From: Balanoglossus misakiensis
Lineage: Eukaryota; Animalia; Hemichordata
DNA length: 64,000 nt
NCBI GenBank assembly: GCA_040954595.2
Contig: CM082593.2
Location: 7,476,043 to 7,540,042 of the forward strand
Reading direction: 5' to 3'
Shown here: piece by piece, positions 1,323 through 55,000 of the stretch
Numbering within the stretch: position 1 is the first letter of the stretch
How the letters are laid out: each line of letters opens with the position of its first letter
Notes under the pieces: generated by a model
Databases searched by the model: none
What the model was told of the DNA's origin: nothing
The model's input: the letters and a program-made list of their open reading frames with translations, nothing else
Translations under genes and position numbers: made by a program

Positions 1323-1496
1323 AGTTTATAAAACTTACACGTGTATCGTTACAAAAACGTAACTTACGTTGTATGACCCTGAACGCTACTGGCTTTTGCA
1401 ACACGATCGATCATGATGGATTCATCATATCAAAGTGCGAGAACTTTCAACGAAACATACAGGGTCATATAATAGAATCGAGCGCAATACTTGCGC
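1323..1496 (-). promoter_or_regulatory. Conserved structured 3'UTR module of IL-17 gene 1
   Basis: mRNA sense: GCGCAAGUAUUGCGC (1482-1496); stem 1460-1469/1372-1381; GUUAC-GUUUUU-GUAAC (1348-1363); AGUUU-UAU-AAACU (1323-1335). Confidence 0.8.
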
Positions 1497-1865: not shown

Positions 1866-2723
1866 TTAAACTCTTTCTCTCCCGCAAGTACAAGCCACTG
1901 CCAGCTTCACTGTGGTCGGTTCGTAGACATAAAACCCGTCAGAGTCACAAGCGCTGGTTTTCACTAAGACTGTCAGGTCAGCCGTGGTTATCTTCTCACA
2001 CCGCCATATTGGATGGTGGTCGCTGTTTTCCAGGAGATCCGTGATGCAGTTCGGACAATCGTAGCACTCGGCTTCAACCAGGGTTTGTGGGTAGCGGTCG
2101 GTATCTGTGTTTTCAACGTGGTAGTAAGGGCAGGTCGATCTGATTTCCAAAGGGGCGTCTGAACCGTAGGAAACCGGGCAGGTGGTCGATGAGGGCGGGC
2201 TGTAGGACCCAGGAGTGGTGGCAAACGAAAGAACATTTGGCGTGTACTGGTTCAGCTGGTCTTGTAAAGCGTCCTCGCTCGGCTGTTGGCAGTTGATTGG
2301 GTTACCATGGATACCACTCATGCTCGAAATGCCCAAAACGATGGCAATCTGGAAAAGATGTGCATTTGTCAGACGTTAACAAATGTTCGTGAACTACATG
2401 TGACAAAGGAAAATAACGCATGGCCAAAAGTCACAATTCTTGTTAAACTCTGCGCCTCTTCTAGTTTCATACAAAGCTTGACTTATTTTACTTGGCTAGC
2501 AACCCGTTGCTACGGTTATATACGAAGTCTCGCGAGATCTCGTAACGACTGGAAAATCATCTCTTGTGTTTATATCAATGATAGTGACTTGTTATACATT
2601 CAGTATTGCGTTATCCATAGATTTGTCAACTGAGCGAATGTATGTGATATTTCCTATAAAGACAACCTGTTGCGTGTGCTGGTCTTATAATATACTTACA
2701 AAGAATCCGTAAGCGCAGTCCAT
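1866..2723 (-). CDS. IL17: IL-17-like cytokine, gene 1 (exon 1 2700-2723 MDCAYGFF; exon 2 1866-2348; 168 aa)
   Basis: RSTCPYY..D.DRYPQTLVEAEC..C..C and C-terminal VACTC match the IL-17 cystine-knot signature (RSxxPW..DxxRYP..AxC..VGCTC). Hydrophobic signal peptide. gtaagt donor and ttttccag acceptor, phase 0. Confidence 0.88.
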
Positions 2724-3079: not shown

Positions 3080-3089
3080 GGGAAATCCC
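3080..3089. promoter_or_regulatory. NF-kB consensus site upstream of gene 1
   Basis: GGGAAATCCC ~360 bp upstream of the ATG; the identical decamer lies at an equivalent position upstream of gene 2. Confidence 0.55.
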
Positions 3090-4659: not shown

Positions 4660-4840
4660 AAGTTTATAAAACTTACACAGCGTTACTAAAACGTAACTGA
4701 CGATACATGACCATAAAGTTTTTTTAACGCGGTACACGTCAACCTGATTGAAACTTTGAGATATAACACCATTGTCCCACCAAGCTGAACGAAAATTGAA
4801 ACGCGAATGGTCATAGTAATATAGAACGCAATACTTGCGT
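4660..4840 (-). promoter_or_regulatory. Conserved structured 3'UTR module of IL-17 gene 2
   Basis: ACGCAAGUAUUGCGU (4826-4840); AUGACCAU/AUGGUCAU stem (4807-4814/4707-4714); GUUAC-GUUUUA-GUAAC (4682-4697); AAGUUU-UAU-AAACUU (4660-4674). Confidence 0.8.
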
Positions 4841-5177: not shown

Positions 5178-6049
5178 TTAAACTCTTTCTCTTCCACAAG
5201 TACAAGCCACTGCCAGTTTCACTGTGGTCGGTTCGTAGACATAAAACCCGTCAGAGTCACAAGCGCTGGTTTTCACTAAGACTGTCAGGTCAGCCGTGGT
5301 TATCTTCTCACACCGCCATATTGGATGGTGGTCGCTGTTTTCCAGGAGATCCGTGATGCAGTTTTGACAATCGTAGCACTCGGCTTCAACCAGGGTTTGT
5401 GGGTAGCGGTCGGTGTCTGTGTTTTCAACGTGGTAGTAAGGGCAGGTCGATCTGATTTCCAAGGGGGCGCCTGAACCATACGAAATTGGGCAGGTGGTCA
5501 ATGAGGGCGGGCTGTAGGACCCAGGAGTGGTGGCATACGAAAGAACATTTGGCGTGTACTGGTTCAGCTGGTCTTGTAAAGCGTCCTCGCTCGGCTGTTG
5601 ACAGTTGATTGGGTTACCATGGATACCACTGATACACCAGATGCACAAGACGGTAACAGCCTGGAAAAGTAGCATAAATGGGGGGTTAAAAGAGAACAAT
5701 TTGTTTGAACTCAGACAGCTACCGTAATTAACAACAACTAACAACCTAAGACCAGTAGACCTATCTTTCTCACGTTCGTCTCCTTCGGTGTGTATGTGAA
5801 CTGTGGGCGTCTGCAAATGACATCATTTTGATCATTGATATCAAGCGCTTTACGAAGTACTGTATTAGCAGTCTGTGGTATATACTATTATGATTGTGAT
5901 AGGTAAATGACTTCCACCACTTTTAATTGGCAAATTTATGTTATAATTGCCAATCAGTGAAATGCCCCAGAGGTCGGTGTGTATTTGCCGTGCTTTTGGC
6001 TGTTCCCGGGTAAAGTTATACTTACCAAAAGTCCGTAAGCAAAATCCAT
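5178..6049 (-). CDS. IL17: IL-17-like cytokine, gene 2 (exon 1 6026-6049 MDFAYGLL; exon 2 5178-5660; 168 aa)
   Basis: Near-identical mature region to gene 1. Exon 1 is homologous to gene 1 exon 1. Canonical GT-AG, phase 0. Confidence 0.88.
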
Positions 6050-6398: not shown

Positions 6399-6408
6399 GG
6401 GAAATCCC
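6399..6408. promoter_or_regulatory. NF-kB consensus site upstream of gene 2
   Basis: GGGAAATCCC ~350 bp upstream of the ATG. Confidence 0.55.
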
Positions 6409-9042: not shown

Positions 9043-9217
9043 TAAGTTTATAAAACTTACATCGACGTTACTTAAACGTAACTGACTTAATATGATCCCA
9101 AATCTAGCAGTTTGTTTGGAACACGGTGGAATTTACGTGTCTTTCCACGAAGCAATTGTACTTTCAAACGAAGCAGATTGGATCATATACAGTAAATTTG
9201 AACGCAATACTTGCGTT
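9043..9217 (-). promoter_or_regulatory. Conserved structured 3'UTR module of IL-17 gene 3
   Basis: AACGCAAGUAUUGCGUU (9201-9217); AUAUGAUCC/GGAUCAUAU (9180-9188/9090-9098); GUUAC-GUUUAA-GUAAC (9067-9082); UAAGUUU-UAU-AAACUUA (9043-9059). Confidence 0.8.
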
Positions 9218-9408: not shown

Positions 9409-10131
9409 TTAAACTCTTTCTCTCCCGCAAGTACACGCCACTGCCAGTTTCACTGTGGTCGGTTCGTAGACATAAAACCCGTCAGAGTCACAAGCGCTGG
9501 TTTTCACTAAGACTGTCAGGTCAGCCGTGGTTATCTTCTCACACCGCCATATTGGATGGTGGTCGCTGCTTTCCAGGAGATCCGTGATGCAGTTCTGACA
9601 ATCGTAGCACTCGGCTTCAACCAGGGTTTGTGGGTAGCGGTCAGTGTCTTTGTTTTCAACGTGGTAGTAAGGGCAGGTCGATCTGATTTCCAAAGGGGCG
9701 CCTGAACCGTAGGAAACCGGGCAGGTGGTCGATGAGGGCGGGCTGTAGGACCCAGGAGTGGTGGCATACGAAAGAACATTTGGCGTGTACTGGTTCAGCT
9801 GGTCTTGTAAAGCGTCCTCGCTCGGCTGTTGGCAGTTGACTGGGTTACCATGGATACTGCCGATAACAGAAATGAGGACGATAGCTGCAACCTGTAGAGA
9901 GACAAATTTCATGAGTAAATCGAGATAGTATACAAAAACTCAATGGGTATCATTTGTGACATTTCGCAAACTAGTTTTTAGTGCAACGCAAGGCGATCTG
10001 GATTGTCAGATACTAGCGACAATGTTAAGTAACCTGTTTGAAAGAAACGCATTGTATGATATACAATTTCGCAATCTGTTATAAGTTATGTCGAAAATCT
10101 AACTTACTGAAATTCTGTAAATAAAATTCAT
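9409..10131 (-). CDS. IL17: IL-17-like cytokine, gene 3 (exon 1 10108-10131 MNFIYRIS; exon 2 9409-9891; 168 aa)
   Basis: IL-17 signature. gtaagt donor and ctctacag acceptor. TATATATA at 10231-10238, ~100 bp upstream of the ATG. Confidence 0.88.
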
Positions 10132-13772: not shown

Positions 13773-14703
13773 ATGGAATTTTTGTACCGATCATCAGTAA
13801 GTCATAATTACCGGCTAATGCTAAATGTTAACGCTTCTTGTGTTTTTGTGTGTGAGAGAGTGTGTTGTGGATTGGCCGGTTTAGTATGTTTCGGCCAATC
13901 TCAAACTCTGCGTTAAAATCTAGAACCTATAACAAGAATGTATGTCTTTCGTGGAAAACACTGGAAAAGGGAATTAAGTTCATTCAGTTTTACTTGCCGT
14001 TAAATCAGCTATAGTTTCCAGAACAGGACCACTAACTTGTCAGAAACAGAATCATAATTGAGCTGGCAATATAGTTTAATGCATCTGTGACAGTCTATTT
14101 TGTCTCAAATACCGAAGACATCTTCTGTTTTGATTGTTAGCGTCATGAGGATAGGTTTATATCTTTTAACATTTACACAAGTCACCTCATTATTAACAAA
14201 AAGAATTGTTCTGTCTACAGGTTGCAGCTATCTTCCTCATTTCTGTTATCGACAGTATCCATGGTAACCCAATCAACTGCCAACAGCCGAGCGAGGATGC
14301 TTTACAAGAGCAGCTGAACCAGTACACGCCAAATGTTCTTTCGTATGCCACCACTCCTGGGTCCTACAGCCCGCCCTCATCGACCACCTGCCCAATTTCG
14401 TATGGTTCAGGCGCCCCCTTGGAAATCAGATCGACCTGCCCTTACTACCACGTTGAAAACACAGACACCGACCGCTACCCACAAACCCTGGTTGAAGCCG
14501 AGTGCTACGATTGTCCGAACTGCATCACGGATCTCCTGGAAAGCAGCGACCACCATCCAATATGGCGGTGTGAGAAGATAACCACGGCTGACCTGACAGT
14601 CTTAGTGAAAACCAGCGCTTGTGACTCTGACGGGTTTTATGTCTACGAACCGACCACAGTGAAGCTGGCAGTGGCTTGTACTTGCGGGAGAGAAAGAGTT
14701 TAA
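13773..14703 (+). CDS. IL17: IL-17-like cytokine, gene 4 (exon 1 13773-13796 MEFLYRSS; exon 2 14221-14703; 168 aa)
   Basis: IL-17 signature. aaacATGG start, gtaagt donor, gtctacag acceptor. TATATAA at 13678-13684; AATAAA at 15308-15313. Confidence 0.88.
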
Positions 14704-15070: not shown

Positions 15071-15203
15071 GCGCAAGTATTGCGTAAATATTGCCATTTG
15101 ATTCTAGCCGAATGACATTTACTGGTTAAACCAAAAAAGTGTTCGTCCAGGGTCATGGAGTGTCAGTTACGTTTTAGTGACATTTATGTCAGTTTTAAAA
15201 ACT
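15071..15203 (+). promoter_or_regulatory. Conserved structured 3'UTR module of IL-17 gene 4
   Basis: GCGCAAGUAUUGCGU (15071-15085); AUGAC..GUCAU (15112-15116/15152-15156); GUUAC-GUUUUA-GUGAC (15166-15181); AGUUU-UAA-AAACU (15191-15203). The module is inverted together with the gene. Confidence 0.8.
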
Positions 15204-33300: not shown

Positions 33301-35907
33301 TTTTTGGCGAAAAACCATGGGTTATAGCCCATGAAAATCATCAAAAAATGACAATTTTTCGACTTTGGGAAGTATCAAAATTTCTTCATTTTTGGCGAAA
33401 AACCATGGGTTATAGCCCATGAAAATCATCAAAAAACGACCATTTTTCGACTTTGGGAATTATCAAAATTTCTTCATTTTTGGCGAAAAACCATGGGTTA
33501 TAGCCCATGAAAATCATCAAAAAATGACAATTTTTCGACTTTGGGAAGTATGAAAATTTCTTCATTTTTGGCGAAAAACCATGGGTTATAGCCCATGAAA
33601 ATCATGAAAAAATGACAATTTTTCGACTTTGGGAAGTATCAAAATTTCTTCATTTTTGGCGAAAAACCATGGGTTATAGCCCATGAAAATCATCAAAAAA
33701 TGACAATTTTTCGACTTTGTGAAGTATCAAAATTTCTTCATTTTTGGCGAAAAACCATGGGTTATAGCCCATGAAAATCATCAAAAAATGACAATTTTTC
33801 GGCTTTGGGAAGTATCAAAATTTCTTCATTTTCGGCGAAAAACCATGGGTTATAGCCCATGAAAATCATCAAAAAATGACAATTTTTCGAATTTGGGAAT
33901 TATCAAAATTTCTTCATTTTTGGCGAAAAACCATGGGTTATAGCCCATGAAAAGCATCAAAAAAATGTCAATTTTTCGACTTTGGGAATTATCAAAATTT
34001 CTACATTTTTGGCGAAAAACCATGGGTTATAGCCCATGAAAATCATCAAAAAATGTCAATTTTTCGACTTTGGGAAGTATCAAAATTTCTTCATTTTTGG
34101 CGAAAAACCATGGGTTATAGCCCATGAAAATCATGAAAAAATGACAATTTTTCGACTTTGGGAAGTATCAAAATTTCTTCATTTTTGGCGAAAAACCATG
34201 GGTTATAGCCCATGAAAATCATGAAAAAATGACAATTTTTCGACTTTGGGAAGTATCAAAATTTCTTCATTTTTGGCGAAAAACCATGGGTTATAGCCCA
34301 TGAAAATCATCAAAAAATGACAATTTTTCGACTTTGTGAAGTATCAAAATTTCTTCATTTTTGGCGAAAAACCATGGGTTATAGCCCATGAAAATCATCA
34401 AAAAATGACAATTTTTCGACTTTGGGAAGTATCAAAATTTCTTCATTTTCGGCGAAAAACCATGGATTATAGCCCATGAAAATCATCAAAAAATGACAAT
34501 TTTTTGAATTTGGGAAGTATCAAAATTTCTTCATTTTTGGCGAAAAACCATGGGTTATAGCCCATGAAAAGCATCAAAAAAATGTCAATTTTTCGACTTT
34601 GGGAATTATCAAAATTTCTACATTTTTGGCGAAAAACCATGGGTTATAGCCCATGAAAATCATCAAAAAATGACAATTTTTCGACTTTGGGAAGTATCAA
34701 AAATTTCTTCATTTTTGGCGAAAAACCATGGGTTATAGCCCATGAAAATCATCAAAAATGACAATTTTTCGATTTGGGAAGTATCAAAATTTCTTCATTT
34801 TTGGCGAAAAACCATGGGTTATAGCCCATGAAAATCATCAAAAAATGACAATTTTTCGACTTTGGGAAGTATCAAAATTTCTTCATTTTTGGCGAAAAAC
34901 CATGGGTTATAGCCCATGAAAATCATCAAAAAACGACCATTTTTCGACTTTGGGAATTATCAAAATTTCTTCATTTTTGGCGAAAAACCATGGGTTATAG
35001 CCCATGAAAATCATCAAAAAATGACAATTTTTCGACTTTGGGAAGTATGAAAATTTCTTCATTTTTGGCGAAAAACCATGGGTTATAGCCCATGAAAATC
35101 ATGAAAAAATGACAATTTTTCGACTTTGGGAAGTATCAAAATTTCTTCATTTTTGGCGAAAAACCATGGGTTATAGCCCATGAAAATCATCAAAAAATGA
35201 CAATTTTTCGACTTTGTGAAGTATCAAAATTTCTTCATTTTTGGCGAAAAACCATGGGTTATAGCCCATGAAAATCATCAAAAAATGACAATTTTTCGAC
35301 TTTGGGAAGTATCAAAATTTCTTCATTTTCGGCGAAAAACCATGGGTTATAGCCCATGAAAATCATCAAAAAATGACAATTTTTCGAATTTGGGAATTAT
35401 CAAAATTTCTTCATTTTTGGCGAAAAACCATGGGTTATAGCCCATGAAAAGCATCAAAAAAATGTCAATTTTTCGACTTTGGGAATTATCAAAATTTCTA
35501 TATTTTTGGCGAAAAACCATGGGTTATAGCCCATGAAAATCATCAAAAAATGTCAATTTTTCGACTTTGGGAAGTATCAAAATTTCTTCATTTTTGGCGA
35601 AAAACCATGGGTTATAGCCCATGAAAATCATGAAAAAATGACAATTTTTCGACTTTGGGAAGTATCAAAATTTCTTCATTTTTGGCGAAAAACCATGGGT
35701 TATAGCCCATGAAAATCATGAAAAAATGACAATTTTTCGACTTTGGGAAGTATCAAAATTTCTTCATTTTTGGCGAAAAACCATGGGTTATAGCCCATGA
35801 AAATCATCAAAAAATGACAATTTTTCGACTTTGTGAAGTATCAAAATTTCTTCATTTTTGGCGAAAAACCATGGGTTATAGCCCATGAAAATCATCAAAA
35901 AATGACA
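15385..35907. repeat. 88-bp satellite array, ~20.5 kb, roughly 230 monomers
   Basis: Monomer AAAATCATCAAAAAATGACAATTTTTCGACTTTGGGAAGTATCAAAATTTCTTCATTTTTGGCGAAAAACCATGGGTTATAGCCCATG (e.g. starts at 16101 and 16189). Diverged monomers at ~15385-15680; four inverted blocks. Confidence 0.98.
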
Positions 35908-36027
35908 TACATACATACATACATACATACATACATACATACATACATACATACATACATACATACATACATACATACATACATACATACATACATACAT
36001 ACATACATACATACATACATACATACA
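35905..36027. repeat. (ACAT)n microsatellite fused to the right end of the satellite
   Basis: About 30 perfect tetramers, directly visible. Confidence 0.95.
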
Positions 36028-36105
36028 ATACATAACTTCAAATATTTTATTGCGTAGAAATTTAAGGCGCGACATTGTAATTTATTTTGCTTATGTTATC
36101 TGTAC

Positions 36106-36249
36106 AGTTTTTAAAACTTACGAAGATAGATGTCACGAAAACGTAACTGACAATGTATGACCCAGGCAGTACATTTATGTCGACCAAGCGATCGAATAAT
36201 TCATTTACTATTGAGTCATATATATAAACTTGAACGCATTACTTGCGTT
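36106..36249 (-). promoter_or_regulatory. Conserved structured 3'UTR module of IL-17 gene 5
   Basis: AACGCA-AGUAA-UGCGUU (36233-36249); UAUGACUCA/UGGGUCAUA (36212-36220/36156-36164); GUUAC-GUUUUC-GUGAC (36132-36147); AGUUU-UAA-AAACU (36106-36118). Confidence 0.8.
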
Positions 36250-37837: not shown

Positions 37838-39595
37838 GTTGAAACGGGTCGTGTTAATTAAAGTTGTGTAGAGAGATCTAAGATGCGTTTGCTGCTTCGA
37901 CTGTATCTGACTTTCTAACTTGCAAGGGACACATTTATATAGGTTGCTGGTGTACCAGATTAGTTCATGATTGCGATCTGTAATCTCAAGGAAAATTGGG
38001 GAAAGGAACGGGCGAATCCGCGTTCTTAGTTTCCTTCTTCGTTTTTTTCACCTTGATCGATACCACTGTTTGTAGACGTTCTAAAAATAGACCATGAGTG
38101 TTCTCTGGAACGGTGACGCTTTGGACGTCGTTACCGGCAACAAGGTCATAAAGCATGAATTCCGTGTCCTTTGTAATCATTCTGAGACATTATTGTCACT
38201 GTAAAGTGGTTACTGACAGCTTACAAGGTTCAGCCGTGTGACCCCGTTGTTTGTATTATAACTGTCTGTGTAGCAGAGGTCCGGGAGTGTTGTTGACACC
38301 TTCAAAGAAGGGGCGGTAATTTCTATTCAAACACTTCTGCATGATACGTCTGTCTGTCTACCTAACACAATCACTGATGACATTTATGGTTGGTGATATC
38401 AATGCACAGATTAAACACTACCACGAGTAAGGCGGGAACCCACCACGGCGCAAAACTGTCAAGACAGGAAGGGTTATCAGCCAAGTGTTTTGCTCGGTTC
38501 TTTTGCAGCACTGAGCGAAGCGCCTATATCTGTGACCCTTCTTGTAGAACACATACCCACTAAGAATAATTAGAATATACCCTAGGTCATTTGATAGTAT
38601 TCGATTTTTTACTGGAAATTCGCTAACCATATTTAAATTCCTCTGCATTCGGGCACCAGACAATAACACAAGTCAATCTTTTATCCACGCGGGTAGTAAT
38701 ATTTCTTCAGTAATCAACCGTGATGTTTACACTGCATATTTCTGAATCACCATAATTATTCTGAAGACACGGAAATAAAGATGAGGGACGACAAAAGAGT
38801 TTTTCCTGGTAAAATACAAAGACATAACGTGATGCACACCTTGTTTAATACCCGGATCTTGACCATCAACTTCCACATTTTTTCGAAGTTTCGGACAAGG
38901 ACGTGGGATTTCCGAGCAATTAATGTGATGGCCAAGCAAGAATAGCATTTCGCTCGATCACAATATTAGAACTTTGATTTTGTAGCGCATATACTAGTAT
39001 ATGGGACTACCCAGGCTGATCATATAGTGCAGTGCATGGTTATCATATTACATAGCCTTACTGTGAGAATTTTGAGAAAACACATGCAATATTGTCATTT
39101 TCTTAATTTTTTCACACAAAGCGCCGAAAGAGGGGGTTTAATGTAAATGATATAAAGAAAACACTATGTCCCGGGATTGATTTGTTCACCATAGGAAAAC
39201 TATACTCGGGGTATAATGAGTGCAAGGAAAGTGCTGACTCAACATTTCCACAATATTAAGGATCCGTGGCTCAGTCATGTATTTTGAGGTCATTTTGGAT
39301 GACGTCTCTATAGGTGTAAATGGGTACCACGAGCCCAATGACCCGAATATTCAGTCCGGTCGGATAACCGGAAAGACAAACACACACCTGTGTTGGCGTT
39401 ATATATTTTATTCCGTCTATTAAAAACGCAATTGCAACGAACATAGATCATTTAACTTAATTGTGAGTAACACAAAATTTACATTCATTCTGGGTTAAAG
39501 TCTGCTTAATCTCCGCCGTGTTAAAAGAATAAGTCTACGCTACAATTACGTAAACTTACATTAAATTATATTTGTCATTTATACTGACTGTGTTC

Positions 39596-39793
39596 AAGTT
39601 TATGAAACTTACATTGATGTTACGAAAACGCAACCACCACGCACATTATGACCAATAACCGACGAAAATGTCGGTCACATTTGACTAGGCGGGCCTTGTA
39701 TGTATACCTGTGGTTGAATAATTCCAAATCGAAAACACACACTTCGTTTCGTGCCGCCTGGGTCATATAAACAGTGAGTGCAATACTTGCACT
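39596..39793 (-). promoter_or_regulatory. Conserved structured 3'UTR module of IL-17 gene 6
   Basis: AGUGCAAGUAUUGCACU (39777-39793); UAUGACC/GGUCAUA (39761-39767/39647-39653); GUUGC-GUUUUC-GUAAC (39619-39634); AAGUUU-CAU-AAACUU (39596-39610). Confidence 0.8.
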
Positions 39794-40378
39794 TTGCTCA
39801 ATATAAAGGTTGTATATAATGTTTCTGTCGCAAAAATAAATATATTGCGGATATCGCGAACGATCTTCCCTTGGAAACATGCGCGCAGAAGTTGACGAGC
39901 ATGCGCAGTTACATGACTGCTCTGCTCTTTGTAGTACTCTATAAGGTTCTTGCATTCTTTGTGGAATCGACTTTTATAAAAAAAAGTAAATAAAATGTAC
40001 TCCTATGATAATGAGATATGTTACAGATGTATCGTCTTCAGGATCGACATTGTACTCTTGTTGTATGAAAACTCATTATTATAAGTTAAATATACATAAA
40101 TATTATCAAAGGTACTTGGTGATTTGCTGTAATGAACTTTGTGCAAGGCGTCACGGTATTTTGCGGTGTTCTTTTGTCGCACGTGTAATGTTGCAAGATT
40201 GCGCAGGAAGGGCGGTGACTTGTGTACTTCATAGCGGAAAATGTTCAGACGACAGTTACTGTACCATGTGGCCTACATCAAGCGTAAATGACGTCATTTT
40301 GCCTATAAATAAAACTTTTAGGATATTCGCCCAGCTTTGCAATATTTTTCCGTTTATGTAAACTTTGTACAACTTCAT

Positions 40379-41458
40379 CTACACCCTTTCTCGTCCACAA
40401 GTACACGCCAATGCAAGTTTCACTGTGGTCGGTTCGTAGACATAAAACCCTTCGGAGTCACAGTCTTTGGTTTTCTCCAAAACTGTCAAGTCGCCCGTGG
40501 TTATCGTCTCACACCGCCATATTGGATGGTAGTCGCTGTGTTCGATGAGATCGGTGACGCACTTCCGGCAGTCGTAGCACTCGGCTTCAACCAGGGTTTG
40601 CGGGTAGCGGTCATCGTCTGTGTTTTCAACGTGGTAGTACGGACAGGTCGATCTGATTTCCAACGGAGCCCCCGAACCGTACGAGAGAGGGCAGGCGGTC
40701 GACGAGGGCGGGCTGTAGGTCCCCGCAGTGGCGGCGTAAGAGTGGGCATTCGGTGTGTATTGGTTCAACTGCGCGCGAAGAGCGTCCTGACTCGGCTGTT
40801 GGCACTTTGTTGGGTTGCCATGGATACCGACTATGCTACACATGATGGCAAACTGTAACGAAGAAGATAACAGCAAATATTACTACAAATTTCAGTCTTC
40901 ACATTAAAATATGTTTCCATGTACTGGGCGATCGAACGATTTGAATTTGCAAAATAAACCTGACGAAAACTTAGCAAACGTATAAATGTGAAGGTGATTT
41001 TTAGCTTTCTGTAAATGAGAGTACAGTATTTTTTGTTTCTCATCGTAAGGCTTATGACAAGTTTGTCATCTGGTAGGAAAATGGACATCTTATAGACGTT
41101 GGAATTACATGTACACCAATCAATCCAAAAAGGACAACAATAATAATCATGGAAAAAATAACCCAGCTCGGATGCACTGAGCTGTTGAGTGGCCATAGAT
41201 TTTCAAAGAGGGAACTTGAGTCTTTAAAATATTTCCACCACGTCCGCTTTCACGTTTTAAACTGGTGTGGAAGCATCTGTTAATCAGATTTCGAAAATTC
41301 GAACATGTGTCCGATGTACGTAGCCTTAGAGCCTTACTTTCCTAATTTTTCTGACATCTTCAACAAATGTTCGCTTTTTTCAGGCTGAAAGGGGGGATCT
41401 CATCGGCGCATGCGTGCACTGAGCTCTAACTCACCAGACAACTGTACGTGATTTCCAT
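40379..41458 (-). CDS. IL17: IL-17-like cytokine, gene 6 (exon 1 41435-41458 MEITYSCL; exon 2 40379-40852; 165 aa)
   Basis: IL-17 signature. gtgagt donor and cgttacag acceptor, phase 0. Confidence 0.87.
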
Positions 41459-43275
41459 GTCTAAATATGAATGACTTCTTCGCTGTGGTAATAGTATGAG
41501 TTACGTCCAGGAGTCGTGGTTGTCTAACTTGTGTTTGAATATCAAACTGCCTACCCCATTCTTATATTCCTGATCGAGCCTGTATCTTTAGGCTGTGAGC
41601 TCATTATTGTGGAGAATATTTTTAAAAAAAATCAGGGAAAAGAGGCAAAATCTAGGCGAGATGTCCACGCTAATTTTGCGACTCGGTAATCCGGTCTATA
41701 ATTAGCATGTGAATGGGTGCGGGAAATGATATTTTGAACCCGAGCTATCTGCACCAGCAAGACTTTAACCCCTTCGACCCGCGAGCCGCGCTAACTCCCT
41801 TCTGCTACACACATACACACCTGTTCAACTTAAACTTCTAAATTCTTGTTCAAATATCGTTAAAAGCATATGCATATGTAATTATCGGTCACGTAGTTCC
41901 ACATATTCCGCATACAAATCAAAAACATTCCTATTGTATAAGGATATCTAGGAACTAATCAAGAATTTGGAAGTTGAATTAATTATTTTTTTCGTTTAGT
42001 TCTAAATATAGGGTACTTCCCCGTACATCGCCCATCATGTAGACAAGGCACTATAATTATGTTCTATATTTTGTCCAATTTTACCTGGAAAGTTTTAATC
42101 ATCAGTGACCTGGTACCTTTGCAAGTAGTTGAAAAGTATACGCCTAGACAAATGTTGCCATTGAATGTTGAGATTTTTCCAATCACAGTTTTTCACTTGG
42201 GTGGCCACGCGAAAAAGTGTGCCGCCACGCGATCACACGATGGTAGACACGCCCTTCAACCACATTGAGGGCATACGTATGTTGGGGGGTCTGCATTCAT
42301 GTTGTATTGTCGTATGTTCTTTTGGACAATTTAAAACTATTGCTTGAGGACACTACATGTTGTCATGCCAACAGACTGAATTGTTACTTGGCAGATCTAC
42401 GCTCATAATCTACATTTTGACTTTTGACCGTTAGGTCGTGTAGGCCTATAACTGTGCGAAGCTTTTTTTCGGTATGCGACTTCCTCAAACACTGTATTCA
42501 CACGGAACTCGCCTATGAAGCGTGTAATGCCTGTATGCGTCGCTAATCATTGACAAAGAAGTCGTGATCGACTGATGTGAGTAGGTAGGACTGCAATGAC
42601 GTAACTTCTCTGATACGTAACATAACTTGCGTCCCCATGAAGTGCTTGCGTCATATTAACAGTGTGTGGGAAGAGTGACGTCAGAGATGGCGGTGATTCA
42701 TCATGGTGTAGTCAAGGAGAGAACAACATCATGAAAACAACACGTGGGTGCGGAACAAGAACAAAACCGTACCAAAAGCAGATTCAAGATGGCGATTTCT
42801 CGTGCCAGGAAATAACCAATCTCAAATGAAAGATACTCTAAAATTGGCAACAACAATTTTATGCTCTTTCAGCCCGAGTTCCGCAATATTCACACTTCCC
42901 AACAATGTATGTTCTAAACATCTTCGGGGTGGACTGTCCACTGTCACGGCACCCTGAATTGTAAATGTGGGTGTCGTGTTAGTATGATATTGGTCAAATA
43001 TGCACAACAAAGAATAAATGTCACATGAATGTGTCAAATCCTTTTTTTAAAAGAGGGACGTATTTACAAGTTTTTTCTTCACGATTTAGGGGAATTCAAG
43101 TTGGCTTTATGCTCGACATTACCAGACCAGTGAGAATTGGCCAAAGTCGCCGCGTACTTGAATAAAGAGATGGAGATCGGTAACAATTTTACAGGTTGTA
43201 TGTCTTTATTAATAAATATGTTTGAAGTATTTATAAATATATAAGTTAAATTTCAGTAGATAAAATAACTACGTC

Positions 43276-43325
43276 AAGTTTATAAAACTTACTGTGACGT
43301 TACAGAACGTAACTGACTAAGTATG
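43276..43325 (-). promoter_or_regulatory. Truncated 3'UTR module of IL-17 gene 7 (last two hairpins only)
   Basis: GUUAC-GUUCU-GUAAC (43299-43313); AAGUUU-UAU-AAACUU (43276-43290). Confidence 0.72.
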
Positions 43326-43834
43326 GAGGGCCTTAACAAATTAGTTGTCGACAGCCGTTTCATTTGGTTTTCTTTCTGAAATCTTGGACAAAAAAGCACA
43401 GTTACCATCTTCAAACGTTATCTTTCGCCGTTCTTTTTTTTTCATTGTCCTACTTGCTGTCCTGTCGGATCCTCTCAGCATCGCCTTCACCACGGCAACC
43501 ATTATGTCATGTCGTTTACAAACAAGCAGGATACAGAAAATTCTGACGACCAGAATTGCAGAACGTCTCAGAAAAAAAATTCTCAAGTGGATTAAATTTA
43601 CCCCTGTGGGGCTAATATCTATAGGAATATAAATAAATTTAGACTGTAAAAGTAGCGCTTATTTTCGTTACTAGTTTCTCTTTCCGTCTCTGATATGTAT
43701 GATACCAGCGCCATTTTCTTCTAGTTGAAGGGCACATTCCTGCATCTGAACTTTTAAACGATTGAATGTCACCTTGAGCTGATTTCTGTGTGTTGAATCA
43801 CTCTGTTGCAAACACTTCAGTTTCCACCTCACGT

Positions 43835-47447: not shown

Positions 47448-48013
47448 TAAGAACCGTGTAAATGCCTATCTAAGAACCTTCATGATCGGCCACGTGTATA
47501 AAATCGTATTTAAGAACCTTGATGATCGGCCACGTGTATAAAATCGTATTTATGAATCTTGATGATCGGCCATGTGTATAAAATCGTATTTAAGAACCTT
47601 GATGATCGACCACGTGTATAAAATCGTATTTATGAACCTTGATGATCGGCCACGTGTATAAAATCGTATCTAAGAACCTTGATGATCGACCACGTGTATA
47701 AAATCGTATTTATGAATCTTGATGATCGGCCACGTGTATAAAATCGTATTTAAGAACCTTGATGATCGACCACGTGTATAAAATCCTATGTAAGAACATT
47801 GATGATCGGCCCCGTGTATAAAATCCTATCTAGTAAGAACCTTGGTGATCGGCCCCGTGTATAAAATCCTATCTAAGAACCTTGATTATCGAACACGTGT
47901 ATAAAATCGTATCTAAGAACCTTGATGATCGACCACGTGTATAAAATCCTATCTAAGAACCTTGATTATGTCGGCCATGTATGAAAATGCCTATTTAAGA
48001 ACCTTGGTGATTT
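47448..48013. repeat. 40-bp minisatellite, ~13-14 copies
   Basis: Unit TAAGAACCTTGATGATCGGCCACGTGTATAAAATCGTATT (starts at 47471, 47511, ...). Confidence 0.95.
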
Positions 48014-51000: not shown

Positions 51001-51553
51001 TCTCTAAGAAAACAACCGACACGACAAATGTAAAGTGGAAATGCCAGCTCATATTTCACACCAGTCAGGGTGACTGAAGTGATGATCAGCGCTACCTACG
51101 GTGGAAATCGCGACGCCTTTTAATTAACACAGGCCAGGCAATGCGCATCACTGTCCCTATTCATGTATATGAAAGTTCCCACGCACTACGCATGTTCATT
51201 GTTATGTTAATCATATTCATCTGAAATATGACGGTAGGCGTAACTGTAGTGTTTTCATCACGATGCTTGATATTTTCCAGCCAGTCCGAACCGTTACACA
51301 TACGTGGATGAATCCGGACCGATAGGGAAGACATGAGGGTTAATGTTTAACCGCGGCTATCGGAAAAAAAACGTGTAGTCTGCGTTAAACATATTTAATC
51401 ACATACATGTATTGTATGTACGTACGCTCACCTTTCAACATGGCTGCTCGGGTGATAACAGTGATCAGGTGGTCGGCCTCTGTTTATCTCGACGAAAACT
51501 GATACTGCTGCTTGTTGTTGTTGTTGTCGCCGTCACGTGTGACATTGGCCAAG

Positions 51554-52038
51554 ATGATGAACGCCCTGTCCTCACCTGAGATCCGCGGCTCCGCTAGGTT
51601 TTCGTGGCCGCGGGCCGCGCCGCCGCCGAGAGCGCGCACGAAGCGGATGAGCGCTGGCCCCGCCACTGACGAGAAGCAGGCCGAGAGAGAAGTAACGCTG
51701 CAGGTTCAAAACGCCAACCCGCCCGCGGATGTATCGGTGCAGGCGTTCTACCTCACCTACATGGTGCACACGGCCAGGGCCATCCAACGGGCGATACTGC
51801 AGCGGATCAGCAAATCGGGCGCCGTCCCCAAAGTGAGGATGGTGCGAAGCGACCCCTCGCAGGACGCGGACAGCTTGTGGGCTGACATACTCTGCCAAAC
51901 CCTGGACAGCTACACCCATCTGGTTCACCAGTACGCCAACGGACAGCTCAAGCGCAAACTTGAAGGGGAATTGAAGAAATTCGATTACCGGGAAAAGTTG
52001 AATTTAATACTTCTGGGACACGAACACATCACCGTTAG
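51554..52038 (+). CDS. Probable first coding exon of a multi-exon gene; possible TRADD-N-like domain
   Basis: GC-rich ORF with GC3-biased codons in an AT-rich background. aagATGATG start with an upstream in-frame stop; ends at AG|gtaagt (phase 2). The domain call is recalled pattern similarity only. Confidence 0.65.
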
Positions 52039-55000
52039 GTAAGTCCCTAAACAGAAAAAAGATGGAGTCCCCGGCCACGTCTATTTGATTGTACGCTGCC
52101 AATACGTTCAAAAAGCAACTTACAATAGGCATTTGGGGTTTAGCCCTACAAACACCCCCTGCAAACAAAGCCCTGACTGTCGAGCAAATAAATGGGTCCT
52201 TGTTTTGTTGTTCGAGACCTCAAATAAACCCACTTTTCGTTTCTGAATATTTTCTCAAGGATGACAGAGCTGTTGACCTCAATTAAAACAATACCCGGCA
52301 GGGCATGATCATGTTTTGGGAGACGTCCGCGGGCTGTACCGCCTTCAGTTTATGCACCGCTATCTGCAAACGACATGACGTAATTCGATAATCTCGGATT
52401 GTCTGTACATGTCCACGCAGCATCGCCATCAAAACCTGCTATCGAAAACTATTGAAAATACTCAATGCTCTTAACTACTTAAGGGACATAAAATTCCTGA
52501 CGTCAATTTCCAGAAACGCACTTTTTTAAAATCAAAGATCCTACCGCCAAAGAGATTCGCGGGGAAATTTACCCAAATGTTTGTCTCACCAACTTACAGT
52601 CAATGTTTAATGACAAACGGTAGATGTGGGCAAAACATAAATAATCTGTAGTTTGGCGTGCTGTCAATACTAATACCTTCTCTGAAATGGTAGATGGTCG
52701 AACACTGAGGGGTCATGGGAAGGGATGCGAGCCCGCTTCGGTCCCGCCAAATTACTGCGATGAGATCTTTCAACCGAACGATTAACAAAGACAAAATCGA
52801 AGCCCTCTAATGGAACCAAAATTGCCCGTCACCATAAATTTCAGAGAAGAAAGGAAAAACAGGTCGTTCATGTCGGCCCGTTAATCTTTTAAACCCCACA
52901 CGACAATAGGGGTCCCAGTAATTGCGTTGAACTGCCATTAAAATCGGCTGGCTGTATAACGGTCCGATCACGTGACCGCCACCGTGAGTGAACATTTTGC
53001 AGGTGGTCCCATCAAACAAATTATCGAGTCAGAAACCCATTCCCTTTTTTTCCAATTGTCACATTATATCGGTAAACATTTCACACGAATCTTAATAGTC
53101 TCTGTTCTTGAACCACCTTGGAATGTATTACATGGTTTTGGTGATGACTTACTTCAGTATATATCGCTCTTAATAGAATGTTTGTTCATATGAAAAGCTA
53201 GGAATGGCAGCTGAAACAGCCGATAATAGAACATGGGGAAAAGACTGACTATAATGTAATAACGACGCATAAATGCTTCAGACCCAGGAGACTCAGAGCC
53301 ATTATGCACTGGAAGGTTGGCTTAGGGGTTGACCATTTGATATTCGGGAGGGGAGGGCTGGAAGATTCTTAAAAATGTTACCAGCCAACTGCGAAAAAAT
53401 GTTTGCCTTTGCAGTCCAACAGAAAAAATATTCAAGGGAGGCTGAACAAATTGCTGTGGCAAATCCTACGTCACAGTGGTATAAAAGGTTTTGTTTCCGA
53501 ACAGTTCCCCCGCCTCGCCACAACCAATATCAAATGGGTTGCCCCTAAGACGCACAAGCAGGATTTCGGCGATGTGTATAGAAAAGGGGAAATATTCTAA
53601 AAGCAGAGACAAACGGCAAACAAGGAGGCTGAGAACACAGGCAGAGCAAATATACGGCGTGGGGGCGTGGTCAAATTCGCGGACTATAAAACCAGACATT
53701 CCCACGAGGCCATTGCATTAACTTGTCACGATATTTGCCAAAACGATACCAAAATATTTACCACGTGAACTGCGCGTGAGTTCGGCTCTCCCCAAGTTTA
53801 CCTCGACGATGCTATCACGTATAGCCAATTATTAGACATAACATCATCTATTAGGAGTCGATAACCCACTTTTCGCTGATAATGGATCGTAACAGGTTAT
53901 CAACTCACAAGAATTGAGTACAAAAGGTTATTATTAGGCGTTGCTTAGTCTGAAATGATCTGAACCAAGGCCTCGGGGTACTTTTTTATGTCGTTGTCTT
54001 CATTTCATAGGATATCATTAAATTTTACACCGACTGCCTACAAACCACGCCTTTTAACAATATAAGCCGTGTCGATCGATAGTGACATGATCAAACCACA
54101 TATTGACTTATCGGTGTAGAAAACATCAGGCAAATTCAAATTCCAACTACAAAGCTATCAACAATAACCCATCACATCGTAGTGCCGATTGTTGGGTGCC
54201 TGAACATGCCTGGAAAATCATTTCTGGAATATGCACATTCTCTCTTCAGAAAAAAAAATTGCATATTGAACAAGAGGCCATTAGTTGCACTGGATACCGA
54301 ATACATGTATACACGTATCCCACTGTCCCATACGCAGCCCACGTCCCCCATACGCTGCCCATGGCCCCATACGCTGCCATACCACCCGCTTCTCGATATG
54401 TGCACGGGAGCGGTGACGTCATCGGTGCACGGGAGATGCTGAGTCAGCGCTCTTGTTAAAATATACGAGACCGATAACAAAACTGATGGAGGAATACTGT
54501 AAATTTCATATTATGATTATGATTTACACACTGTTGGTTGTTGTTGGCGGTATTGTGCGACAGGGCCAGGTGTGTCCCGGGTATGCATTTGAAAATGTGC
54601 CTTTTCATCATATAGCTGTCTTTCCCACCACAATGCAATGCTAGCCGCTCAATCGATTCATTACAGTATAATAACGCTTATACCAATTCCATTAATGTGT
54701 AATTGACACTAATTAGGGATGTCTTCCAATTACAAACGTCACATTAGCCCAGATAAAGGAACGGAATTGCGATGAGCTGGTTCATTATTATGTACTGCCC
54801 GTAGAAAACGAACGCGTGGTGACAGGCAAGCAAACGTGGCACTTTCAACTTAATCTTTGATGTATTGCATTGATGGCAGTTTGTTAGACCGATTGCATTA
54901 TTTATCACCAAAGTGCAGCCGCCATTTCTCTCTTTACATTATTTGATCTAAATGATTCAATAATCAATGAATAAAGTAATTTTGAAATTGAGTTGTATGG

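Follow-up and report, generated by a model that had tools for sequence, protein, structure and literature searches.

The IL-17 gene cluster

The 64-kb stretch of Balanoglossus misakiensis DNA analysed here (the window) codes for seven two-exon IL-17 paralogs, g1 to g7, and the Pfam IL17 domain (PF06083) was found in 7 of the 8 open reading frames scanned. Each paralog features a short exon with the ATG, a GT-AG intron and an open second exon, coding for a protein of 165-169 amino acids.

1866-2723, minus strand: IL-17 paralog g1, two exons, 168 amino acids
5178-6049, minus strand: IL-17 paralog g2, 168 amino acids
9409-10131, minus strand: IL-17 paralog g3, 168 amino acids
13773-14703, plus strand: IL-17 paralog g4, 168 amino acids
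36515-37837, minus strand: IL-17 paralog g5, 169 amino acids (182 with an alternative acceptor)
40379-41458, minus strand: IL-17 paralog g6, ATG at 41458, exon 2 at 40852-40379, 165 amino acids
43835-44884, minus strand: IL-17 paralog g7, 167 amino acids, frame intact

Acorn worms supply the nearest proteins (12 matches), the species being Ptychodera flava (70% to g3), Glandiceps talaboti and Saccoglossus kowalevskii. Tandem IL-17 arrays are described in marine invertebrates, S. kowalevskii included (PMC8353272), and infection is described to activate sea-urchin IL-17 genes early and rapidly (PMC5457136).

Only 1-6 of ~68 four-fold sites distinguish the coding exons of g1-g4, showing that homogenisation acts in the cluster, while 32 of 58 such sites differ between g5 and g6. 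The second exons of g1-g4 (1866-2348, 5178-5660, 9409-9891 and 14221-14703) are near-identical at four-fold sites; hardly any alignment is possible for their introns, first exons and UTRs, and the likeness ends at the stop codon. These sequences suggest gene conversion restricted to the coding exon of g1-g4.

An 88-bp satellite array of ~229 copies (20 kb, 15647-35907) separates the 3' ends of g4 and g5, which are arranged tail to tail, and is followed by an ACAT microsatellite (35905-36034). This repetitive stretch comes within a few hundred bases of the predicted poly(A) signals of both genes. A 40-bp minisatellite of 13.5 copies is found at 47467-48011, and a G+C-richer open frame of 179 codons without Pfam match (51503-52042) is possibly an exon of another gene. 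The site GGGATTTCCC, which we take to be of the kappa-B type, is present at 3080-3089 and 6399-6408 (minus strand), ~360 nt 5' of the ATG of g1 and g2; for the other five IL-17 genes, 1.4 kb was scanned without a match to the kappa-B-type pattern.

A conserved hairpin downstream of six IL-17 genes

The sequence at 39777-39793 of the minus strand, AGUGCAAGUAUUGCACU, matches exactly the stem-loop that the initial annotation had placed there, named hairpin A. It was said to recur in six paralogs with paired changes at the stem base and a fixed apex AGUA(U/A), and the window indeed holds six copies with the same stem-base pairs.

1482-1496, minus strand: hairpin A of g1
4826-4840, minus strand: hairpin A of g2
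9201-9217, minus strand: hairpin A of g3
15071-15085, plus strand: hairpin A of g4, G-U at the stem base
36233-36249, minus strand: hairpin A of g5, apex AGUAA
39777-39793, minus strand: hairpin A of g6, 6-bp stem and AGUAU apex

The 11-base core GCAAGUA(U/A)UGC is found in sense orientation in all six, always 3' of an intact IL-17 stop codon and at a distance of 195-589 nt from it on the coding strand. The exact matches of GCAAGTAWTGC are at 1484-1494, 4828-4838, 9204-9214, 36236-36246 and 39780-39790 (minus strand) and at 15073-15083 (plus strand). When one mismatch is allowed, two further matches appear elsewhere in the window, giving 8 matches against 1.65 expected, a number that none of 100 shuffles reached. 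In an ungapped alignment of 23 columns the AGUA of the loop and the GCA/UGC at the top of the stem are invariant in 6/6 copies and the flanks are variable: 10 of the 11 core positions are constant, as against 0 of the 12 outer columns. No more than four 7-mers are present in each of the six UTRs: GCAAGTA and a trio of T-rich words overlapping the third hairpin (see the module below). The UTRs share 11 words of 11 bases with one mismatch, where 40 shuffles gave none. A covariance model of hairpin A recovers the six training copies at 28-35 bits and finds nothing above 15.7 bits beyond them, the next match being in an AT/TACA-rich stretch. A metagenome scan yielded 90 pattern matches that reduced to one locus (L001), rejected as its 17-residue match lies in a frame with stops and has 0 of 3 motifs.

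Hairpin A is thus a real conserved element. The case for it comes from conservation and context, not from folding stability: the predicted free energy of -5 to -9 kcal/mol is modest (z -0.9 to -3.5), the predicted pairing in g2, g3 and g5 falls to 0.01-0.34 at one of five flank lengths, and a separate fold gave 0.07 for g5. Folding the complete UTR jointly with the end of the coding region gives a pairing probability of 0.53-1.00. All these folds are model predictions.

The stem shows paired changes towards its base. Pair -1 is C-G in five copies and U-A in one, pair -2 is A-U (3), G-C (2) or G-U (1), and pair -3 is A-U in three copies and unpaired in the other three. In total 33 of 36 stem cells are paired (91.7%) and double-sided change is seen in two of the six pairs, while sliding the partners by 1-3 columns leaves only 14-50% paired. 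Shuffled controls reached the percentage paired in 5/500 cases, the covariation score in 12/500 and the number of double-change pairs in 65/500; with six copies this control is suggestive only and, given the last figure, covariation by itself is weak. The apex can close as an A-U pair around a GUA triloop in five of six copies, a form predicted at ~55% and 0.2 kcal/mol better than the pentaloop. The g5 copy has A/A at this position, which shows that the closing pair is dispensable.

The 5' arm and loop of hairpin A have a complement in the Cys-Thr-Cys codons found ~20 nt before the IL-17 stop (e.g. 1884-1890). A duplex between this arm and the coding region is a weak lead.

Comparison with known RNA elements

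The initial annotation held that hairpin A is not an iron-responsive element (IRE), a Smaug element, a histone stem-loop or a Py-Pu-Py triloop, and left an Rfam comparison to be made. Both the comparison of loops on the mRNA strand and the Rfam search agree with it: Rfam, including its IRE and histone stem-loop models, gave no match at gathering score in the 64 kb, and around the g6 copy (39550-39850) there was one chance match (E 7.8) outside hairpin A. The IRE has a loop of 6 nt with a pair between positions 1 and 5 (CAGUGN or UAGUAN), an upper stem of 5 bp, a bulged C and a lower stem. Its apex contains AGU, as does that of hairpin A. Placed in the AGU register, hairpin A has 7 bases between the paired flanks and A/A at positions 1 and 5; the fold predicts no lower stem with a single-C bulge, and the IRE reading was rejected. 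The Smaug recognition element is a CNGG(N) loop, which hairpin A does not have.

A Roquin constitutive decay element (CDE) was rejected because the loop is GUA or AGUA(U/A), not YRU or AAU. Read antisense, the loop would be UAC and thus YRY, but that strand is not the mRNA. The alternative decay element (ADE) was discarded as there is no hexaloop with invariant U2 and U3 and the loop is not of the GUUNUA type. In its closed form hairpin A resembles the LIN41/TRIM71 response element, with a GUA triloop and a purine at position III; that element is described to need a U-A (weakly C-G) closing pair and A-U is not among its contributing pairs (PMC5908797). The apex pair of hairpin A is A-U in 5/6 copies and A/A in 1/6, g5 being unable to close the triloop at all, and this assignment was also rejected. 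The Act1 element described in Hif1a (SBE, PMC8996325) shows by eye no resemblance to hairpin A, a comparison with a single example and no consensus.

Protein-read 3'UTR hairpins and modules for Roquin and Regnase are kinds already known. The loop of hairpin A and the four-part arrangement of these invertebrate IL-17 UTRs were found described neither in Rfam nor in open-access text, and no description of hairpins in invertebrate IL-17 3'UTRs was found in open-access text, figures aside. The accessible text of PMC5457136 and PMC8353272 does not mention 'UTR'. The exact 11-mer occurs in the open-access literature only under unrelated titles, and AGUAU is absent from the matches listed for open-access literature on pentaloops, hairpins and UTRs.

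A four-part 3'UTR module

Hairpin A is the first of four parts, followed by a long helix (P2), an ADE-like hairpin with a hexaloop and a CDE-like hairpin with a triloop.

39647-39767, minus strand: P2 of g6, arms 39761-39767 and 39647-39653 enclosing ~110 variable nt
39619-39634, minus strand: ADE-like hairpin of g6, 5 bp, loop GUUUUC
39597-39609, minus strand: CDE-like hairpin of g6, loop CAU
1323-1469, minus strand: module of g1, with P2 at 1372-1469, ADE-like hairpin at 1348-1363 (GUUUUU) and CDE-like hairpin at 1323-1335 (UAU)
4661-4815, minus strand: P2 and 3' hairpins of g2, ADE-like at 4682-4697 (GUUUUA), CDE-like at 4661-4673 (UAU)
9045-9188, minus strand: P2 and 3' hairpins of g3, ADE-like at 9067-9082 (GUUUAA), CDE-like at 9045-9057 (UAU)
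15099-15203, plus strand: P2 (two G-U) and 3' hairpins of g4, ADE-like at 15166-15181 (GUUUUA), CDE-like at 15191-15203 (UAA)
36106-36220, minus strand: P2 and 3' hairpins of g5, ADE-like at 36132-36147 (GUUUUC), CDE-like at 36106-36118 (UAA)
43277-43313, minus strand: ADE-like hairpin (5-nt loop GUUCU) and CDE-like hairpin (UAU) of g7, 3' arm of P2 decayed
43451-43457, minus strand: probable remnant of hairpin A in g7, 7-mer GCAAGUA (5' arm and loop, no 3' arm)

Order and spacing are kept though the remaining UTR is unalignable. Hairpin A is separated from the 5' arm of P2 by 14-18 nt in 6/6 genes, P2 from the ADE-like hairpin by 10 nt in five of six (14 nt in g6), and the ADE-like from the CDE-like hairpin by 8-13 nt; the interior of P2 varies from 56 to 116 nt in the six genes. 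In the core of P2, 35 of 36 cells are paired, three of them G-U, a count biased towards pairing since the register was picked with a pattern, and a C-G to U-A double change is found in g3. The stems of the ADE- and CDE-like hairpins are paired in 70/70 cells of an independent MAFFT alignment, without double-sided change. The former have 5 bp in all seven genes and the latter 5 core pairs, extended up to 7-8 by A-U and G-U. Both stems carry GUU...AAC in 13 of 14 cases.

The word GU(C/A)A precedes immediately the GUU at the start of the stem in 13 of 14 of these 3' hairpins (e.g. 36148-36151 and 36118-36121, minus strand), which suggests a repeated unit or a single-stranded contact. In NFKBIZ the residues C65, U66, G67, C69, A70 and G71 spell a similar word, situated there in a stem arm; according to a preprint the C65-G71 residues adjoin the Regnase-1 cut on its 3' side and are a mutation hot spot in lymphoma (bioRxiv 10.1101/2025.09.19.677199).

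The two downstream hairpins, and not hairpin A, match or approach the loops preferred by Roquin. Oberstrass et al. describe for the human ROQ domain CDE loops of the YRU type (also AAU) and ADE loops GUUYUA with variants including GUUUAA, on preferred stems of 6-8 bp, and report no enrichment of true tetra- or pentaloops or of other triloops (PMC11609897). Compared to this set, three of the seven ADE-like loops are in the enriched group (GUUUUA in g2 and g4, GUUUAA in g3) and the others are off-consensus (GUUUUU in g1, GUUUUC in g5 and g6, the 5-nt loop in g7). YRU triloops are found in g1, g2, g3, g6 and g7 (UAU four times, CAU once), whereas the UAA of g4 and g5 is off-consensus. At least one loop of the published preference is thereby present in 6/7 genes and none in g5. 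The 5-bp ADE-like stems are shorter than preferred in all seven genes, and a U-A closing pair with a central A is the direction less favoured by Roquin. From the published consensus we infer that both 3' hairpins may be bound by Roquin. Invertebrates are described to have, in general, one gene each for Roquin and Zc3h12 (PMC11172303).

Natural loss of hairpin A in g7

Paralog g7 is a natural variant, an intact IL-17 gene with neither hairpin A nor P2 in its UTR (43205-43834) and with 5 nt in the ADE-like loop. Its GCAAGUA lies 138 nt from the ADE-like hairpin, as compared to 86-149 nt in the other genes. The 7-mer occurs six further times in 87 kb of non-satellite sequence, so that the g7 occurrence is probably a remnant and could be due to chance. 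Hairpin A and P2 were lost together, with the Roquin-type hairpins and the reading frame kept, which shows at the sequence level that the first two parts are a separable 5' sub-unit.

Evidence for an element acting in RNA

The prediction that the element acts in RNA, within the IL-17 3'UTRs, is supported by three lines of evidence, one being the lack of an Rfam match. The mRNA strand has seven G-U and no A-C wobble cells in hairpin A, the P2 core and the ADE-like stems, corresponding to ~5 independent events. Between the stop codon and the module, AATAAA or ATTAAA is absent from 3673 nt of the seven genes (shuffle mean 9.8; 0/2000 as low), while the antisense strand of the same segments has 22; for AATAAA alone 20/2000 shuffles were as low. 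A poly(A) signal follows within 200 nt of the module in 7/7 genes; in g6 the first AAUAAA after the stop codon, the predicted signal, is at 39407-39412 (minus strand). Absence upstream and presence downstream put the module inside the predicted mRNA. Sense-only wobbles and the missing upstream signals favour RNA over DNA. Each UTR has 1-11 AUUUA motifs.

Possible roles of hairpin A

Hairpin A is probably engaged by a protein as part of a Roquin-type module, and it likely belongs to a system that shortens the lifetime of the IL-17 mRNAs. The explanation ranked first, and held tentatively, is that hairpin A and P2 form a positioning or cleavage element for a Regnase-type nuclease. Roquin is predicted to bind the downstream ADE- and CDE-like hairpins. 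P2 would loop out the 56-116 variable bases and bring hairpin A within ~25-30 single-stranded bases of the ADE-like hairpin, and the nuclease, a partner of Roquin, would cooperate with it to keep the IL-17 mRNA short-lived. This explanation is placed first because a 5' sub-unit agrees with the constrained spacing and with the disappearance of hairpin A along with P2 from g7. These two features, like the conservation, the order of the four parts and the sense-strand pairing, are read from the sequence, in a sample made of paralogs within one window, six of them with hairpin A. The Regnase role itself is proposed by analogy only, with the RCE and ADE of ets-4 and with the SL1-3 core and CDEs of NFKBIZ. 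Against it stands the invariant loop, which points to sequence-specific reading, while Regnase-1 is reported in a preprint to read stems more than loops (bioRxiv 10.1101/2025.09.19.677199). CLIP ties Regnase-1 to YRY triloops according to a 2026 review (PMC13732794), and the lack of such a triloop in hairpin A also counts against this reading.

Close behind comes the possibility that another RNA-binding protein, one with sequence specificity, recognises hairpin A, since the loop is invariant and Regnase-1 is tied to YRY triloops. Such a protein, for which no site of this kind is described, may perhaps gate the Roquin module, for instance by protecting the mRNA after infection, or add translational silencing. 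Its existence would account for the invariance of AGUA and of the stem top in 6/6 copies next to outer columns of which 0/12 are constant, and for a loop outside the classes enriched with the human ROQ domain (PMC11609897). Two precedents can be mentioned: the transferrin receptor TfR1 has protective hairpins interleaved with CDE-like decay hairpins (PMC6795136), and Act1, which is reported in hemichordates (PMC5457136), binds 3'UTR stem-loops and promotes expression of its targets (PMC8996325). On the other hand, no candidate protein emerged, the Hif1a SBE of Act1 is unlike hairpin A by eye (PMC8996325), and the fixed spacing to P2 and the ADE-like hairpin suits a geometric role at least as well. 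The initial annotation's reading of hairpin A as a binding site for an unidentified RNA-binding protein is supported in part: as the module holds Roquin-type hairpins, a new protein is no more plausible than a known Regnase-family nuclease or a purely structural role. The bolder proposal that hairpin A founds a new class of 3'UTR stem-loops, through which an animal RNA-binding protein not yet characterised would turn Roquin/Regnase-driven decay of cytokine mRNAs on or off, is unlikely. A structural role, where the loop docks on the P2/ADE-like helix or the 5' arm switches to the last codons, is improbable; it would explain the fixed spacing and the concerted loss of hairpin A and P2 in g7, and in 5/7 genes at least 8 pairs are possible between the 5' arm and coding sequence near the stop. 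However, a search for a loop-loop partner inside the module gave no conserved complement and was rejected. The coding-region duplex is modest, since 4 to 179 of 400 shuffles did as well; compensating changes are missing in g5, and the Cys-Thr-Cys codons impose a constraint. In each of the six genes with hairpin A, the local hairpin wins over the duplex (local 0.53-1.00).

It is very unlikely that the conserved feature is the linear motif GCAAGUA, or a microRNA seed match, with an incidental stem. GCAAGUA is among only four 7-mers common to all seven UTRs and persists in g7 without the stem, and the AGUAUU of hairpin A would fit a seed of the miR-8/200 family; but the stem has double-sided changes, and AGUAUU is broken in g5, is a 6-mer at most and is partly buried in the stem. 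A DNA palindrome independent of the transcript, such as a transcription-factor site in a downstream enhancer, has a very slim chance. GCAA-NNN-TTGC is a perfect inverted repeat in five of six copies, though its asymmetric spacer is invariant, its half sites, which we take to be C/EBP-like, face outward, the wobbles are G-U on the mRNA strand only, and the element belongs to a group of RNA hairpins that precedes the first poly(A) signal. The common orientation does not discriminate between DNA and RNA because duplicated genes retain it anyway. Least credible is a neutral relic kept alike by recent duplication or gene conversion. The near-identity of g1-g4 at four-fold sites speaks for it, but the core is common to g5 and g6 despite their 32 differences in 58 sites, so that recent duplication has no power to explain it; moreover, the UTR similarity is limited to short pieces of the module and the stem changes are paired.

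If the Regnase-type reading holds, Roquin/Regnase-type control of cytokine mRNAs through a multi-hairpin 3'UTR module would operate in hemichordates, outside the chordates. The module is a natural experiment on what directs Regnase beside Roquin sites, with six paralogs that keep hairpin A and the helix, g7 that lost both and g5 that has only off-consensus Roquin loops. Should another protein read the loop, the hairpin of 15-17 bases would be a ready bait for finding it, and if it were to act as a switch of decay the hairpin A class would be an IRE-like gate for inflammation predating vertebrates.

Relation to known decay modules

TfR1 is the model for a sequence-read hairpin that gates decay hairpins of the Roquin/Regnase type, its IREs doing so when bound by IRP (PMC6795136). 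Hairpin A differs from them: it has no IRE hexaloop, no internal pair between loop positions 1 and 5, and no lower stem bearing a lone bulged C.

The Regnase-type positioning or cleavage element finds its parallels in two other systems, the IL-17 module having likewise a hairpin and helical core 5' of Roquin-type hairpins at constrained spacing. In the C. elegans ets-4 3'UTR both the hairpin cleaved by REGE-1 (RCE) and an ADE bound by RLE-1 are required (PMC9371910). The deletion primers in the supplement of that paper, read by hand, put the RCE 5' of the ADE, ~37 nt away. The ets-4 F1S segment resembles the IL-17 module in layout, both being invertebrate 3'UTR elements where another hairpin precedes an ADE-type hexaloop hairpin on its 5' side; the IL-17 module adds the long helix and the CDE-like triloop. 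In NFKBIZ, SL1-3 add a silencing function to SL4/5 (PMC5934641), and a precise Regnase-1 cut is reported in a three-helix core 5' of the CDE hairpins, where helix spacing matters more than loop sequence (bioRxiv 10.1101/2025.09.19.677199). The NFKBIZ element lies directly behind the stop codon, its loops mattered little for cleavage, and its accessible text, figures aside, mentions no loop like AGUA(U/A). Both are nevertheless multi-hairpin 3'UTR modules of immune genes with a 5' helical core separable from 3' hairpins with UAU triloops, and the sensitivity to spacing in NFKBIZ has its counterpart in the near-fixed spacing of the IL-17 module.
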